This document shows positions 1,217-6,618 of a stretch of 64,000 bases of DNA, piece after piece. The stretch lies in assembly GCA_937921305.1 (NCBI GenBank), contig CAKZSU010000003.1, positions 38,831 through 102,830 of the forward strand. The letters run 5' to 3'. The stretch's first letter is position 1; the number at the start of each line of letters is the position of its first letter. The notes under the pieces were generated by a model. That model saw only the letters and a list, made by a program, of their open reading frames with translations, ran no database searches and was not told where the DNA came from. Source of the DNA: an uncultured Patescibacteria group bacterium (GTDB lineage Bacteria > Patescibacteriota > Microgenomatia > UBA10105 > UBA927). The position numbers and the translations under genes were made by a program.

Positions 1217-2591
1217 AATACACGATGGGATGTTTGCTAAATGTTAATGTTTCTCCTTTTTGTGGTGTATATACTGCCACATGAGGCCATCGAGTTTCAA
1301 TAGCGTTGCGGAGAACGGATCGCTGAGGATCTTCGCCATGCGTCAAACAGATTGCCGAAGGATGTTCCACATGAGACAGCCATTGTAGAAGTTTTGGCTG
1401 ATCCGCGTGGGAGGATAAACCGGACGATTTGCGGATTGTCGCGCGAACGGGAATAGTTTTCCCTTCAATTGGTATATTTTTTTGTCCATCGAGGAGCATT
1501 CGCCCAATCGTTCCTTCGGCTTGAAACCCAACCAATAAGAGTCTCGTCGTTGGAATTGGAAGGTATGTTTTTGCGTGGCGAAGTATTCTCCCGCCGGTCA
1601 TCATGCCGGAGCCTGCGATAATCACTTTTGGCCCCGGCAGATTGTCTAATTTACAGGATTCATTGTGAGACTCCACCATCGACAAGCCGGGAAACGTGAA
1701 GGGATCATCCATATGCGCGTGCTCCGCAAGTTCGTGATTATATAGATGTTTGTATCGCTGATACACATTCGTCACATGAATCGCAAGAACGCTATCAAGA
1801 AACACGCGGGTTTCCTCTTTTACTTTGCCGTCTTTTTTTAGATGATCAATGACATGAAGAATTTCTTGACTCCGTTCCACGGAGAATGCGGGAATGAGGA
1901 GTGTGCCTTTCGTTTCTTCGATCGTTTGTATTTCCTCCGTGATCACATCGTAAGGATTTTCGTTCGCGTGAGTTCTATCGCCATAAGTTGATTCCATAAC
2001 GATAATATCCGCATTTTGAATGAATTCTGTGTGTTGCACGAGTTCTTCTGGGTAGTTTCCTAGATCTCCGCTAAAGACAATCGTTTGTATGCCATCTTTT
2101 ATATGATGGTAAGAAATATGAAGAAGCGCAGATCCGAGAATGTGTCCAGCGTCGCGCAAAGTGATTGTGTAGTCGCTGATGGATACTGGTTTATGATAGT
2201 CTAGTGTTTTTGTGTGCGCGAGCGTCCACTGCACATCTCGTTCATCATATAGCAGGCGACCGTACTCTCTTTGTCTTGCCACATGGACCGCGTCCAACAA
2301 GGTGAGTTCCATAATCGATTTTGTCGCCGGCGTCATGTAAATAGAGCCTGTGTATCCGAGTTTTCGAAGCAAAGGGATTCTTCCGCAATGATCAAGATGC
2401 GCGTGCGTCAAAAATACGCCAAGAATATCAGATGGATGCAACGGGATCGTTTCGTCGTTATATGATTCTATATCTTTATTCCCTTGAAACATGCCCAGAT
2501 CGATAAGAATACCCTTTCCTGTTTCATCCGTTAGCATGTAAGACGAGCCTGTTACTGTGCCTGCCGCTCCCAAAAACTGAATTTTTCGCAT
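1119..2591 (-). CDS. MBL-fold metallo-hydrolase of the beta-CASP ribonuclease family (RNase J / CPSF-like)
   Basis: 490-aa ORF. N-terminal glycine-rich MBL start (FLGAAGTVTGSSYML) and the HAHLDHCG motif, with a downstream beta-CASP-like region. Confidence 0.7.
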   Translation of the reverse strand: MRKIQFLGAAGTVTGSSYMLTDETGKGILIDLGMFQGNKDIESYNDETIPLHPSDILGVFLTHAHLDHCGRIPLLRKLGYTGSIYMTPATKSIMELTLLDAVHVARQREYGRLLYDERDVQWTLAHTKTLDYHKPVSISDYTITLRDAGHILGSALLHISYHHIKDGIQTIVFSGDLGNYPEELVQHTEFIQNADIIVMESTYGDRTHANENPYDVITEEIQTIEETKGTLLIPAFSVERSQEILHVIDHLKKDGKVKEETRVFLDSVLAIHVTNVYQRYKHLYNHELAEHAHMDDPFTFPGLSMVESHNESCKLDNLPGPKVIIAGSGMMTGGRILRHAKTYLPIPTTRLLLVGFQAEGTIGRMLLDGQKNIPIEGKTIPVRATIRKSSGLSSHADQPKLLQWLSHVEHPSAICLTHGEDPQRSVLRNAIETRWPHVAVYTPQKGETLTFSKHPIVYYASAKHQSNRHSRNAQTAPPAIIQRAGHEKNL

Positions 2592-2659
2592 ACATCTTTT
2601 ATATCATGGTTTCTTGGGGTAAAATAGAGGACAAGAGATGAAGAGATTAAGAGAGGAAA

Positions 2660-2743
2660 GCCGAAGTGGCGGAATTGGTAGACGCGCACGCTTCAGGAGC
2701 GTGTCCAGTTATTTGGGTGGAGGTTCGAGTCCTCTCTTCGGCA
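2660..2743 (+). tRNA. tRNA-Leu, anticodon CAG. Class II tRNA with a long variable arm.
   Basis: Sequence GCCGAAGTGGCGGAATTGGTAGACGCG...TTCAGGA...GGTTCGAGTCCTCTCTTCGGCA. Anticodon stem CACGC/GCGTG. Confidence 0.75.
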
Positions 2744-2854
2744 CAAAATGTATCAAAGGAAGCATAATTTGCTTGGATTGTTTGGATGAATAACCAAAAG
2801 TTGAAGAAGATATATATGGTTTTAAAGGGAATCGTCTATAGAATGCATCAGTAT

Positions 2855-2936
2855 GCGGATGTGGTGAAATTGGTATACACGCAGTCTTGAGGAGGCTGTG
2901 CCGTAAGGCGTGGAGGTTCGAGTCCTCTCATCCGCA
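2855..2936 (+). tRNA. tRNA-Leu, anticodon GAG. Class II tRNA.
   Basis: Sequence GCGGATGTGGTGAAATTGGTATACACG, with the anticodon loop TTGAGGA. Long variable arm and a GGTTCGAGTCC T-loop. Acceptor is GCGGATG/CATCCGC. Confidence 0.7.
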
Positions 2937-2978
2937 CAAAAAGTCGCACAAAAGCTATTAAACAAAAATATGAACGTG

Positions 2979-3051
2979 GGACGATTAGCTCAGCTGGTAG
3001 AGCGTTTCATTTACACTGAAAAGGTCGGGGGTTCGAGTCCCTCATCGTCCA
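2979..3051 (+). tRNA. tRNA-Val, anticodon TAC
   Basis: GGACGATTAGCTCAGCTGGTAGAGC D-arm. Anticodon stem TTTCA/TGAAA carries the loop TTTACAC. T-loop GGTTCGAGTCC. Acceptor GGACGAT/ATCGTCC. Confidence 0.75.
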
Positions 3052-3099
3052 CAAAAAGAAAACACTCGTAAAACGCTGTATATTTGAAAAATATTTATT

Positions 3100-3172
3100 G
3101 CCAAGATAGCCAAGGTGGTCACGGCGCGTGTCTGAAAAACACGTTATACAGGTTCGACTCCTGTTCTTGGCA
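3100..3172 (+). tRNA. tRNA-Phe, anticodon GAA
   Basis: Sequence GCCAAGATAGCCAAGGTGGTCACGG. Anticodon stem CGTGT/ACACG carries the loop CTGAAAA. T-loop GGTTCGACTCC. Acceptor GCCAAGA/TCTTGGC. Confidence 0.75.
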
Positions 3173-3237
3173 CAAAACTTCTTATAATTTGACCTTTAAG
3201 TAAGATCGCGATATAGTTCTTTTATAAAAAAATTCAT

Positions 3238-3309
3238 GCGGCGGTAGTTCACCGGTAGAATGTCTCCTTGCCAAGGAGAAGGTAGAGGGTTCGATTCCCT
3301 TCCGCCGCT
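3238..3309 (+). tRNA. tRNA-Gly, anticodon GCC
   Basis: Sequence GCGGCGGTAGTTCACCGGTAGAA. Anticodon stem TCTCC/GGAGA carries the loop TTGCCAA. T-loop GGTTCGATTCC. Acceptor GCGGCGG/CCGCCGC. Confidence 0.75.
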
Positions 3310-3383
3310 CAATAAACAATGGAAGACGCTTTTTCTTGAGGAATAATGGCGTCTTTTTTAGTATAATTATCAAAAAATACTAT

Positions 3384-3459
3384 TGCCGGGTGGTGTAACG
3401 GTAACACGCCTGACTTTGGATCAGCGCGATTCTAGGTTCGAATCCTAGCCCGGCAGCCA
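3384..3459 (+). tRNA. tRNA-Gln, anticodon TTG, with an encoded 3' CCA
   Basis: Sequence TGCCGGGTGGTGTAACGGTAACACG. Anticodon loop CTTTGGA. T-loop GGTTCGAATCC. Acceptor TGCCGGG/CCCGGCA followed by G-CCA. Confidence 0.75.
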
Positions 3460-3490
3460 GTATGTAGAAGAAAGCCGCAAAGAGGTAGAG

Positions 3491-3537
3491 CTTGCCGCGC
3501 CCGCCTCCGCGGCAAGCGCGTCAAATCCTCCTTTTTT
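3491..3537 (+). terminator. GC-rich hairpin (CTTGCCGCG-CCCGCCTC-CGCGGCAAG) followed by a T6 run. It may terminate the tRNA operon or be an att-site remnant.
   Basis: Perfect 9-bp GC stem at 3491-3516 and a TTTTTT run at 3532-3537. The local GC content is far above the genome background. Confidence 0.35.
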
Positions 3538-3559
3538 GAAACTTGCGGACAGCCGCCGA

Positions 3560-4200
3560 TCCATTAAAAAGAAGTTCGAGCCGACAGTTTTTGCCATGAT
3601 TGATAAATCATGGCAACTATTTTTTGCATGCGCGATTTTGTGCGCTGAAAGCGCACTATTTACGAATTCACAAAAAGGTTCGAGCCACTCAACGCCGTTT
3701 TGGGAAATTTCCTTGATTTTGGAGCTAAGAAGTGATTTTGTTTCTACTAATTCGTTTTTCTTCTTTAGGTAGTCTTCGGGTGATATAACCCTGTCTAAAT
3801 ATCCCTCAAGTAGTCGGGTCAAGCTTTTCTTCGGATTCTTTGATTTTGAGTTGATAATCAGAAACAATGCTGGATGATTTTTGCTTTTCTAGATTCGCGT
3901 CTTTATCCGCCCACTCAAGAAACTTTTTGGCGGCATGCGGCGGTAAAGATGCTCGCAATACAATTTCTTTTAGTTGTTTCTCAATTTCAGTTTTATCAAT
4001 ATATTTTTGCGAGCAAGCTCCTTTCTTTTTAGAACAACGGTAGTATACATATTCAACTTTTCTATTTGTTCTCCTGTAGTACTTGGTGTGCTTTTCGGCG
4101 GTAATTGCGCCGCCGCATTCGCCGCACTTTACTAATCCTAAAAAATCAAATAAGTGCTTGTTGTTTTTGACCTTGCGACTTTTAAGTTTTACCACTTCTT
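3560..4200 (-). pseudogene. C-terminal remnant of a large serine recombinase (zinc beta-ribbon plus coiled-coil region). It is frameshifted and lacks the N-terminal resolvase catalytic domain.
   Basis: Two overlapping minus-strand ORFs, 3806..4369 and 3445..3867. The first carries LGLVKCGECGGAITAEK...YYRC, which is the recombinase zinc-ribbon motif. The second carries LEGYLDRVISPEDYLKKKNELVETK, a typical recombinase C-terminal coiled coil. No resolvase-domain sequence lies upstream. Confidence 0.55.
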
Positions 4201-4390
4201 GGCACTTAACAAAAAGTTTCTTGGAAATTAAAGGTGGGTGTTTTCCTTGGCAACAAAGAGCACAGGAAAGACAGGAAGCACGCCAAGAGAGAGTTGAAAA
4301 TCGGGTCAAAGACGCTGTGATATCGTTAACAATCGTATTGACGCGCGCATAAGTCATTACGAAGCACATTACAACGATGTTGAGGCACGC

Positions 4391-4729
4391 ATGGCCAGAG
4401 TAACGGAGCGAACAAACGAATTTATCAATCGTTTGGAAACCAAAGGATACGATGTTTCAAAAGTCAGAAGCGACCTTTCAACTCTGGAAGGAATGAGAAC
4501 AACCCGAAGAAGTTTATACACCGCATTTATTAATGTGCTTAAAGAAGCCAAACAATATGATTGCGGAGATTCGGAGGGAGCATTCAAAACAGCTATGGAT
4601 GAATCCAGAGCTGCTCTTGCCAAATGGAGAGATCAGATCAAGGCTAACAGAGAGTATATAAATACTACTCTACGCCCTGACCTGCAAGGTCTAAGAGGAC
4701 AAAATCCAAGTCCTGCTACAGCTGAGTAA
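4391..4729 (+). CDS. Hypothetical protein, 112 aa, charged and non-membrane
   Basis: ORF with sensible composition and a GAGG motif about 8 nt upstream. No recognisable family. Confidence 0.35.
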   Translation: MARVTERTNEFINRLETKGYDVSKVRSDLSTLEGMRTTRRSLYTAFINVLKEAKQYDCGDSEGAFKTAMDESRAALAKWRDQIKANREYINTTLRPDLQGLRGQNPSPATAE

Positions 4730-4809
4730 TCCTCTGCCATAGTGTGAAAGAAACGTCTGCAGGCGTTTCTTTCTCGGTATTTAGTAATTATGAATGGAGG
4801 TGATAATTA

Positions 4810-5103
4810 ATGAATAAATATTTACCATACGTAATTATCGGAGTTTTAGTTATTGTGGCGTTTGTGTTTGTGTCCGGCAGGCTAAACACAAAATCAAGTT
4901 TGATTGGCACGACACAAAATGAGGGGGTTATAACAGATACGGGCCCATCACCAATTCCTGTTTCTGAAGTTGTTTTAAATGACAAATCAGAAGTTAATGA
5001 TGCAATTGATGCCGAATTAAATCAGATTGATAAAGAGCTGAAAGGTGTAAATGATACCAACCTCGATGCGAGCGGTCTGTCTGATAAGCAGCTGGGTATG
5101 TAA
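4810..5103 (+). CDS. Hypothetical small membrane-anchored protein, 97 aa
   Basis: Strong Shine-Dalgarno sequence (GGAGGTGATAATTAATG). N-terminal TM helix YVIIGVLVIVAFVFV followed by an acidic, serine/threonine-rich tail. Confidence 0.5.
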   Translation: MNKYLPYVIIGVLVIVAFVFVSGRLNTKSSLIGTTQNEGVITDTGPSPIPVSEVVLNDKSEVNDAIDAELNQIDKELKGVNDTNLDASGLSDKQLGM

Positions 5104-5119
5104 TATGAGTTTTCCTAAA

Positions 5120-5220
5120 TTTTCGCCCTATGGGCGAGAAAATCGCGCGCGCAAAAAATAGCGGAGGCGCGGCGGGTTGGGGCGCCGCGCCGGAGCAAGC
5201 GAGCCGCGAAGCGGCGAGCT
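5120..5220. other. GC-rich cluster of hairpins in the convergent intergenic region. Candidate bidirectional terminator, structured RNA or element boundary.
   Basis: Three hairpins: TCGCCC-TAT-GGGCGA at 5123-5137, GGCGCGGCG-GGTTGGGG-CGCCGCGCC at 5166-5191, and GCCGC-GAA-GCGGC at 5203-5215. The region is strongly GC-skewed against an AT-rich background. Confidence 0.3.
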
Positions 5221-5265
5221 AACACATTGAAGTTCGACATTTTTTGTAAACGGCCAGCTATTGCT

Positions 5266-6618
5266 TCATTGTGTCAACATGCTTGTACGAATGATGGTGT
5301 ATGTTTTTGGATGGTAAAGAAAAATAGCAGGAATGTCTTCTGCGATAACCTTTTGAAAATCAGCGTATAGTTTCTTTCTTTTTTCTTGATCTGTTTCTAT
5401 TCGTCCGTCTTCCAAGAGTTTGTCAACTTTCAGGTTTGTATATCCCGTGATATTGTTTGGCGATTTGGAATGCCAGAACGGATATTGATCAGGATCTGGC
5501 GGCAAGTCTTGCGCGGTTAACAATACATCAAAATCATCTGTGAGCGAGTTCACCACTTGTACATTCGTCGGTATGCCAATCGCTGTCCATGATTGCGCAA
5601 TCGTATTTGCTTGATGAATGTATTGAGGAAATGTGGCGATAGTAATCGATGCTCTATTTTCAGGAAGCGGGATTGACTTTGCAAGTTTTTTCGCTTGTTC
5701 TTCGTTATACTCGTAATGCTTCGTTTTATCATTGTACGCCCATGATGTTTTTTGAATCGGCGAATGGGCGCGTTCTTCGTCTGAGAATATCGGTGTTCCA
5801 TACGCAAGCGCCTGACGAAGCGTTCTATTTTGAAATACCGACGATCTCATATTAAAAAAAAGCCCAACGATTCTATCGTATTTTACTTTTGCTCGAACCG
5901 TTGTTTGTTTCCAGTTCTCGAATGATTCTGGCGATGAAATATCCTCTACTCGATCGATCGATCCTCGTTTGTACGCAAGCGTCGCAAGTGACTCTGTTCT
6001 ATAAAAAAAATATTCTTTGATCGGTAGATTCGTATTTTGAGCTGGAGAAAGTCGGAGTGTATCTATTCGTCCTTCTTTTAATTTCATGCGATCAACTTTA
6101 TATGGTCCAACGCCAGTTAATCCAGCTTGAAGCAACGGTTTGGAAACCAACGCAGGAAATGGACTATACGGTTCGGGTAGCGTCGCTTTGATTGTTTGTT
6201 CATCGATGCTATCCCAGAGCACACCGGTAATATTATAATTAATATCGTTTGCTTGAACGCGATTGCCAGTATGCCATGTCATCGTTGCAAGAGTGAACAC
6301 GAAAGATTTCCCTCCTTCTTCCTGTGTCCATGACGTGGCGATGCCGGGTTCTGGGGTTCCATTTGAAGCAAGCGTCGTTAATCCCATGCTAATATCTCGT
6401 TGGATCGCCAAGGGAAGATCTGACGGTGTAAATTCGCCGATAATTCCTATTCGTTCAACCTTTTTTGTCAATGGAAGCATAACAACTGGAAGAAATCTTC
6501 CCGCAATGATGGTAACAAGCAATCCAACAATGAAGCCAAACACAAGAGACCGACTATACCGCTTGGTAAGGTCTTCCACAAACCATACAAAAACTCGTAT
6601 TCGCTTTGAGAGCTTCAT
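5266..6618 (-). CDS. ABC transporter substrate-binding protein, family 5 (Opp/Dpp-like), with an N-terminal membrane anchor
   Basis: 450 aa with an N-terminal TM segment. The length and overall pattern fit the SBP_bac_5 fold. Its start overlaps the secG stop by 4 nt. Confidence 0.6.
   Translation of the reverse strand: MKLSKRIRVFVWFVEDLTKRYSRSLVFGFIVGLLVTIIAGRFLPVVMLPLTKKVERIGIIGEFTPSDLPLAIQRDISMGLTTLASNGTPEPGIATSWTQEEGGKSFVFTLATMTWHTGNRVQANDINYNITGVLWDSIDEQTIKATLPEPYSPFPALVSKPLLQAGLTGVGPYKVDRMKLKEGRIDTLRLSPAQNTNLPIKEYFFYRTESLATLAYKRGSIDRVEDISSPESFENWKQTTVRAKVKYDRIVGLFFNMRSSVFQNRTLRQALAYGTPIFSDEERAHSPIQKTSWAYNDKTKHYEYNEEQAKKLAKSIPLPENRASITIATFPQYIHQANTIAQSWTAIGIPTNVQVVNSLTDDFDVLLTAQDLPPDPDQYPFWHSKSPNNITGYTNLKVDKLLEDGRIETDQEKRKKLYADFQKVIAEDIPAIFLYHPKTYTIIRTSMLTQ

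Follow-up and report, generated by a model that had tools for sequence, protein, structure and literature searches.

Phage-type large serine recombinases (LSRs), such as those of Listeria A118/LI, φC31, Bxb1 and SPβ, carry a Resolvase domain, a Recombinase domain and a zinc ribbon with a coiled coil in that order, and the ends of the elements they integrate behave as attL and attR with a short shared core. According to a 2020 survey, the use of t(m)RNA genes by a serine integrase had not previously been reported, and only 14 of 297 candidates were found to use them (PMC7192596). Small cargo elements at the 3' ends of tRNA genes are known from tyrosine-recombinase islands, including classical genomic islands and the Prochlorococcus tycheposons (27 of 937 of which carry an LSR); these, too, rebuild the tRNA and carry copies of its terminus at their flanks. 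Here we analyse a 64-kb stretch of contig CAKZSU010000003.1 from an uncultured Patescibacteria bacterium (hereafter, the window; GC 41%), in which a segment of ~1.8 kb separates a tRNA-Gln gene from a transporter gene. We read this segment (~3458–5258), with a probability of roughly 0.88, as a dead, internally deleted copy of a compact, LSR-mobilised integrative element, which belongs to a large and apparently undescribed Patescibacteria family that inserts at the very 3' end of tRNA genes. The domain order and attL/attR-like ends of the phage-type systems are both found in its intact relatives.

The recombinase remnant occupies 3445–4253 of the minus strand and comprises the end of the Recombinase domain, a zinc ribbon (3965–4141), a presumed coiled-coil region and a tail. 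Its sequence is held in two overlapping minus-strand open reading frames (ORFs), 3806–4369 and 3445–3867. Residues 77–135 of the former match Pfam Zn_ribbon_recom (PF13408; E = 6.1e-12; score 46.2 bits, cut-off 25.3), which bears out the initial annotation, in which the zinc ribbon of an LSR had been recognised here directly beyond a tRNA array; the latter has no Pfam match. Joined conceptually, the full 266 residues are 84–88% identical to many database proteins and align to relatives along their whole length, coiled-coil region and C-terminal tail included. The Resolvase catalytic domain (PF00239), with its nucleophilic serine, is absent from the window copy, in which homology starts at about codon 236. 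The Recombinase domain (PF07508) has no Pfam match in the window fragments, and its final residues GKHPPLISKKLF alone remain.

For comparison, metagenomic contigs were scanned with a recombinase alignment, yielding 80 loci, most with full-length genes. The full-length relatives L019 and L090 encode Resolvase (E = 2.7e-21 and 7.8e-21), Recombinase and Zn_ribbon_recom domains. Nucleotide homology of the window copy to intact LSR genes starts at their nucleotide ~707, corresponding to window position ~4248–4253, and ~236 codons are deleted, the whole catalytic domain among them. One extra C at 3816–3818 (GACCCGA versus GA-CCGA in the intact L011, L012 and L016) causes a +1 frameshift between the two halves and is found in three separate assemblies of the same organism (L001–L003). 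The window gene is a dead pseudogene, as its missing catalytic domain and split frame had indicated at first sight.

Many database proteins of 250–300 aa, 84–88% identical to the fragment, begin near the same position, as would be expected if the truncated recombinase were a domesticated, functional DNA-binding protein (zinc ribbon plus coiled coil) under selection. However, the frameshift stands in all three assemblies, and a related copy elsewhere (L004) was truncated independently at another breakpoint and has both a frameshift and an in-frame stop. Most loci of at least 82% identity (L011–L026) are full-length in DNA, the exceptions being L020 and L024 (the latter at a locus edge), while the short protein entries come mostly from short contigs and may be cut by contig ends. 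We therefore regard domestication as highly improbable.

The recombinase breaks off at a deletion junction (4245–4253), where LSR and cargo homologies meet and overlap in CCTTGGCAA (tblastn of P0238; alignment to L019 and L011). Beyond it lies a plus-strand cargo pseudogene (4245–4729), the rest of a 193-aa secreted-protein family with a signal peptide, identified from 21 homologues (55–96% identity to ORF 4391–4729) and frame analysis. Compared with the closest family member, residues 33–54 are encoded at 4245–4310 and residues 54–193 at 4307–4726 in another frame, whereas residues 1–32 are missing and the signal peptide and promoter are gone. Because the end of LSR homology (~4253) meets the cargo truncation (4245), a single deletion must have taken the 5' parts of both divergent genes together with the intervening DNA. 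What had been listed as a possible orphan gene at 4391–4729 is thus a 5'-truncated, frameshifted pseudogene. Directly past it is a 21-nucleotide (nt) perfect-adjacent inverted repeat (4739–4780; GAAAGAAACGTCTG/CAGGCGTTTCTTTC) that is kept in L097 and resembles an ordinary terminator between two cargo genes.

The second cargo gene (4810–5103, plus strand, from the ORF list) encodes a 97-aa protein with an N-terminal hydrophobic stretch and is apparently intact. It, too, had been taken for a possible orphan and turned out to be a member of a small conserved family, with full-length relatives in 14 clusters. Both window cargo genes and an adjacent degenerate end module recur in L097 at 90.7% nucleotide identity, where a 99-aa gene stands in the matching position beside a 191-aa gene; no recombinase was found near this cargo pair. 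None of the other 80 loci has a homologue of the window ORFs, which were tried as family cargo.

Comparison with relatives shows both ends to be well kept rather than decayed; at about 90–97% identity to the ends of relatives, they are the best-preserved part of the element. In the whole 64 kb, 40-nt intervals with at least 75% GC occur only at 3474–3523 and 5154–5223, in agreement with the two GC-rich hairpin regions that had been noticed as foreign to their background; these correspond to hairpin H3 of the right arm and hairpins G1/G2 of the left arm. The right-end arm (P'; 3458–3565, minus strand), delimited from an alignment of 48 right ends, contains a spacer, H3 (3488–3519) and a CGGCGGCT motif, and also encodes the C-terminal tail of the LSR. 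Within the LSR frame lies the inner right-end module (3571–3656, minus strand), composed of GTCGGCTCGAACTTC (3571–3585), hairpin H2 (3591–3616), a 22/23-mer (3617–3639) and hairpin H1 (3640–3656). At the other end, the left-end module (P arm; 5123–5258, plus strand) consists of H1' (5123–5137), the inverted 22/23-mer (5139–5161), G1 (5167–5190) and G2 (5199–5219), followed by an outer part (5229–5258) with a T-loop-like box, GAAGTTCGACATTTTTTGTAAAC (5229–5251), and a mimic of the acceptor end, GGCCAGC (5252–5258). This left module is complete and about 88–97% identical to the left ends of relatives. A shared core, 'cagc', read from the sequence, marks the tRNA-side junction (3454–3457, plus strand) and is repeated at 5255–5258, and the two copies bound an element that runs to ~5258 rather than to 5230, where its end had first been placed.

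Two inverted repeats link the ends. The nonamer GCGGAGGCG has three copies in the window against 0.27 expected; as had been reported, two of them form an inverted pair, 3502–3510(−) and 5161–5169(+), which is part of both ends. The 23-mer AAAATCGCGCGCGCAAAAAATAG at 5139–5161(+) has an inverted copy at 3617–3639(−) with two mismatches, where none is expected by chance. By contrast, the direct similarity of CCGCGGCAAGCG and CCGGAGCAAGCG, originally quoted as an end mark, is 10/12 and no more than chance alone would give; the marks of the ends are instead the inverted 23-mer, the hairpins and the 4-nt direct repeat of the tRNA terminus. Each GC-rich region is homologous to an end module in 25–60 other loci, so that the attL/attR-like character proposed for the ends was upheld and their decay was not. 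With the zinc-ribbon match and the evidence of insertion given below, all three checks suggested alongside the initial annotation favour it.

The hairpin at 3488–3519 folds at −14.1 kcal/mol (z = −3.8). The fold energy of the whole left module is no better than that of shuffles (z = −0.75 and −1.1), as the sequence is GC-rich anyway. In a consensus scan of the plus strand from 3300 to 5400, the only terminator-like site was H2 followed by CTATTTTTTG, a T-tract belonging to the 22-mer, and H3, G1 and G2 failed the rule of the scan. The hit of H2 and its T-tract on the tRNA-sense strand, and the position of both regions at the 3' ends of convergent transcription units, agree with the idea that the GC-rich hairpins are mere intrinsic terminators of the flanking host genes, with an unrelated LSR fragment and no bounded element. 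This idea is very hard to reconcile with the presence of both modules and the inverted, invariant 22-mer beside the LSR family in dozens of unrelated loci and at 12 tRNA isotypes, with the location of the right-hand hairpins inside the LSR reading frame, or with the break in host homology at the module edge, and we give it very little weight. Terminator function is itself compatible with an integrative element and may be part of it.

Across the scanned loci we identified 61 LSR–tRNA pairs, in which the tRNA gene is convergent with the LSR gene and belongs to one of 12 isotypes. The distance from the end of the GSNFF motif to the tRNA 3' end is 76–132 nt, and is 106 or 108 nt in 42 of the 61 pairs. 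The right-end module, which occupies the last ~230 nt before the tRNA, shows nucleotide conservation across 48 non-redundant loci, far above the level expected from 45–60% protein identity, and its parts follow the order GGCTCGAACC box, H1, 22-mer, H2, GTCGGCTCGAACTTCTTTTT box, CGGCGGCT motif, H3 and a spacer of ~30 nt. A second, inverted 22-mer is present in ~30 loci, 1.1–3.5 kb upstream of the LSR start, and is part of a left module of ~150 nt that comprises H1', the 22-mer, G1 (GCGCGGCGGGTGGGGGCGCCGCGC), a covarying G2, a GAAGTTCGAC–T-tract box and, last, a short terminal stretch, past which similarity between loci ends.

Hairpins H2 and H3 covary: 88.9% of cells are paired, as opposed to 30–46% when the partners are slid, and there are 133 double-sided changes compared with 41 in shuffles (0 of 500 shuffles as high). 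H1 was left out of this formal count because the MAFFT alignment A2 puts subfamilies in different registers (58% paired). A long-range pairing of two invariant GGCTCGAAC boxes predicted by RNAalifold was rejected; it carries no covariation, and H1 was also mispredicted. Many of the hairpin loops are C-GAA-G, a loop known from very stable DNA mini-hairpins. A wobble-pair strand bias is negligible (G-U pairs, 12 and 18 on one strand versus 6 and 14 on the other), and so the hairpins could act as DNA or RNA.

Elements with both ends measure 2.7–5.1 kb and carry one to four unrelated cargo genes, which run opposite to the LSR and differ between elements. Their Pfam matches include HD phosphohydrolase, α/β-hydrolase, ABC ATPase, JAB, class-V aminotransferase, Asp/Glu racemase and aldo/keto reductase. 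In 10 intact relatives the cargo had metabolic-type Pfam matches or none, and no phage, packaging, replication or transfer genes were found there by Pfam. The integrase fragment adjoining a tRNA, the association of LSRs with temperate phages and the fact that the nearest annotated relatives are GenBank phage integrases (24–26% identity) would all suit a last remnant of a large prophage or conjugative element at tRNA-Gln, decayed to 1.8 kb. The small size of the intact two-ended relatives, their single metabolic or housekeeping-type genes and the lack of any relative by protein or 22-mer in the IMG/VR viral collection argue against such an origin, which is very improbable. Compared with phage-type LSR systems, members of the family are ~24–26% identical in their recombinase, target the tRNA 3' ends of many isotypes, have arms of 100–230 nt with covarying hairpins in place of 40–50 bp, and form elements of 3–5 kb with no phage genes and an extra internal inverted attP copy.

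Several loci carry further variations. Tandem elements occur in L026 (1617–1850), L036, L043, L060, L073 and L074; in L026 the right arm of one element is joined directly to the left arm of a different one, as expected if one had inserted into the tRNA-mimicking arm of an element already in place. In Candidatus Curtissbacteria (GCA_000995995.1; L007, 9245–11968) a full-length member is split near its 3' end by an IS110-family transposase gene, and a tRNA-Gln(ctg) lies beyond this insertion. In a truncated member (L006, 936–3047), the recombinase fragment is separated from tRNA-Gln(ctg) by a zeta-toxin gene. The G1 loop of the unrelated elements L015, L023, L053, L055 and L089 contains a similar insert of ~25–33 nt (…GGGCACATTCGGCAAGCTCAGTGTAAAGGCGCC…), a related but divergent version of which lies in the H3 loop of L023 (3440–3470). 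This insert has the look of a very small mobile insertion or of a loop module that varies.

The junctions of the family elements lie at the tRNA terminus. In 12 relatives both ends share 4–10 nt equal to the tRNA 3' terminus; on the LSR-sense strand, these cores include GTGAAC at tRNA-Val, TGGTGCCC at tRNA-Arg, TGGCTGG at tRNA-Gln and TTTGGTCG at tRNA-Pro. Core finding by longest common substring misfired for about one-third of loci, the window included, and those junctions were read by eye. The end of the left arm mimics the 3' part of a tRNA, with a T-loop-like box, GTTCGA(A/C), followed by an acceptor-like terminus. Tyrosine-recombinase islands differ in enzyme family and chemistry, and a long tRNA segment is duplicated in them, whereas the family has a repeat of only 4–10 nt and an end that mimics the T-loop.

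The distance from the TCGAAC box to the core is 14–17 nt in the element arm and 10–12 nt in the tRNA, giving an offset of 4–5 nt. An exact offset of 5 nt was dropped because it depended on the alignment of a duplicated TGGC; 4–5 nt is defensible. In the attB of a Listeria integrase, the motif bound by the zinc ribbon lies 5 bp nearer the centre than it does in attP (PMC3783163), and the presumed zinc-ribbon motif of the family, TCGAAC, likewise lies 4–5 bp further out in the element arm. Assuming that TCGAAC is a zinc-ribbon contact, its offset would match the direction and size of the attP/attB shift. On the simplest reading, which we infer, the T-loop box would be the motif that the zinc ribbon binds, attB would be the tRNA 3' end, and attP would consist of the element ends once joined.

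LSRs that are 78–85% identical to the full-length P0049 adjoin tRNAs for Lys, Glu, Arg, Val, Leu and Ile, which have in common only the T-loop and the …CACCA end. Recognition of the T-loop and acceptor end would explain this spread over six isotypes. CCA is encoded by 41 of 61 element-adjacent tRNAs but by only 8 of the 53 remaining tRNAs of these loci (Fisher p = 1.7e-8), a bias that agrees with a crossover immediately before CCA and an element that brings the CCA with it.

Closely related LSRs are found at different tRNAs, the hairpins covary strongly, and the module overlaps the gene 3' end and abuts the target, as do the ωRNAs of TnpB and IscB. On these grounds, the end modules might encode a structured, guide- or bridge-like RNA that overlaps the LSR 3' end and specifies the tRNA target. 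Yet the hairpins have no wobble-pair strand bias, their loops are often of the C-GAA-G type of stable DNA mini-hairpins, and the right module is translated in frame in 60 of 60 loci. Same-type spacers also serve several tRNAs with only the …CACCA end and T-loop in common, so generic tRNA features suffice for targeting. In a search of 2500–6000 with Rfam 15, only tRNAs reached threshold, and the best other match in the ends was noise (tfoR, 16.7 bits versus a gathering score of 70). An RNA guide is unlikely on this evidence, although less so than the explanations discussed above.

In 60 of 60 loci the LSR frame remains open across the whole right arm and continues into antisense tRNA, while each of the other two frames is closed before the tRNA in 47 of 60. 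The LSR has no stop codon of its own; its stop lies 4–197 nt into or beyond the antisense tRNA. Consequently, the att arm is also coding, the stop comes from across the junction and the C-terminal tail depends on the DNA that is joined to the element. In the myxophage Mx8, attP lies inside the int gene of a tyrosine recombinase, and integration alters the C-terminus of the enzyme. The family resembles Mx8 in having its recombination site within integrase coding sequence, and differs in that, in 60 of 60 loci, the LSR frame is without its own stop and takes one from antisense tRNA or the other arm.

An inverted copy of the element's own right arm lies upstream of the start codon in 46 of the ~52 full-length LSR genes with enough upstream sequence. 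The near edge of this copy is 27–107 nt upstream in 44 of these and ~490–600 nt upstream in L015 and L017, and its identity to the right arm is mostly 95–100%. The copy is fused through the core to an inverted left arm, making an exact attP-like site (for example in L090, 99–100% identity) that is flanked by a 21-nt inverted repeat, TAAAATTTTTGCGTTTTTCTT. Examples are L090:2723–2977, L019:2000–2240 and L066:3842–4099, and joined-end junctions also occur past the LSR in L026, L050 and L057. Possible roles of the internal site are those of operator, second attP, inversion site or fold-back splint. It is absent from the window copy.

Between the inverted arm copies of ~100 nt, each of the two modules of the element occurs in either orientation. 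Flipped cargo modules are present in L055, L064, L072 and L089, and a flipped LSR module in L050 (1766–3760), where tRNA-Ser runs into an inverted right arm upstream of a co-directional LSR. The 3' end of the L050 LSR runs into a joined-end site and then into cargo, an arrangement shared by L057 (1321–1650). These flipped modules could be real inversion isomers, produced by the LSR or by homologous recombination, or assembler choices at 100-nt repeats. The inversion switches Hin/Gin and the serine transposons IS607 and Tn4451 (TnpX) likewise combine a serine recombinase with inverted repeats and segments in both orientations; in the family, the inverted repeats are ~100-nt copies of the att arms, and insertion is site-specific rather than promiscuous. 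A more speculative view, to which we attach limited credence, is that these elements form a hitherto undescribed class of three-site serine-integrase cassette carriers specific to tRNA 3' ends. Both ~100-nt att arms would be duplicated in the internal inverted attP, and the LSR and cargo modules would each flip. Flipping or excision would swap the LSR tail between a form encoded by antisense tRNA and one encoded by the arm, a swap that could replace a directionality factor, and the hairpins, with their stable C-GNA-G loops, would be required for the sites to form or to be presented.

We next turn to the evidence that the window segment was inserted. In a close relative of the host (L091), whose solute-binding protein (SBP) gene region is 88.7% identical to that of the window at the nucleotide level, similarity is lost wholly at window position 5270, within ~12 nt of the element edge, and the neighbour past the break is a different gene, not tRNA-Gln. 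The same type of element occurs in L004 at a lone tRNA-Gln in an unrelated neighbourhood, where it decayed independently. A syntenic but more distant relative (L093) has another left-module copy at the same place. In L093 (9434–11900) a cargo segment that includes a trypsin-like protease lies between two inverted left arms (93% identical), with no recombinase before the contig end and a tRNA-Gly that is inverted relative to the window; this arrangement suggests a rearrangement through the left arms. A genome-collection scan for the orthologous locus, with the β-CASP neighbour as query, returned one distant Spirochaetia match only.

The target gene, tRNA-Gln(ttg) (3384–3459, plus strand; ARAGORN and Rfam), stands last in an array of six tRNAs and is the only one of them with an encoded CCA. 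Its last bases (…cagCCA) lie at or past the crossover, and the CCA probably came from the element. Among the eight tRNAs examined in the window, two encode CCA, tRNA-Gln and tRNA-Pro(tgg) (55–130), and the CCA of the latter might be the footprint of a past element of the Pro subtype. The other flank is formed by the SBP gene (SBP_bac_5 by Pfam; 5266–6618, minus strand), whose stop codon is 7 nt from the element edge. The SBP homologues carry the labels Gottesmanbacteria or Patescibacteria, and the host is a Microgenomates/Gottesmanbacteria-like member of Patescibacteria.

Taken together, these comparisons suggest the following course of events. An excised circle would join the two ends into attP, which the LSR would recombine with an attB composed of the tRNA T-arm and acceptor end, with the crossover either in CCA itself or in the few bases that precede it. 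In this way the tRNA would stay intact and often gain an encoded CCA. H2 with its T-tract, and the GC hairpins, would probably also halt host transcription entering the element. In the window copy, one deletion took the catalytic half of the LSR together with the internal att copy and the beginning of the first cargo gene, after which frameshifts struck both truncated genes. The surviving ends may be kept because they now terminate transcripts of the tRNA array and of the SBP gene at their 3' ends, a function that could explain the intact ends beside a rotted interior.

Several points weigh against this account. A clean empty site, that is, a tRNA-Gln/SBP junction without the element, was not recovered, and the exact crossover dinucleotide is therefore not fixed. 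The mobility attributed to family members rests on sequence comparison. The end modules, at ~110 nt on the left and ~230 nt on the right, far exceed the 40–50-bp att sites of studied serine integrases, and the canonical serine-integrase mechanism does not account for their covarying hairpins. The terminator role of the ends rests on a consensus scan that matched H2 only. Lastly, the cargo pair of L097 adjoins host-like two-component genes and has only a degenerate left module, and a host origin of the two window cargo genes therefore retains some probability.

On its own, the window copy is an ordinary pseudogenised island. Its interest lies in the family of which it is a dead member, a new form of serine-integrase integrative element; full-text literature searches returned no description of such elements. 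Serine integrases are prized as genome-engineering tools and are generally held not to use tRNA genes (PMC7192596), whereas the LSRs of this family use them systematically, apparently by reading the universal T-loop box and acceptor end. Such reading would explain how close relatives move among 12 isotypes, and the family offers a case from nature of a serine integrase whose target is retuned. Three features, namely the inverted attP inside the element, the invertible modules and the frame that lacks a stop, bear on how directionality may be controlled without an obvious accessory factor. For Patescibacteria, which have small genomes with few known mobile elements, the family would be a main vehicle of single-gene traffic.

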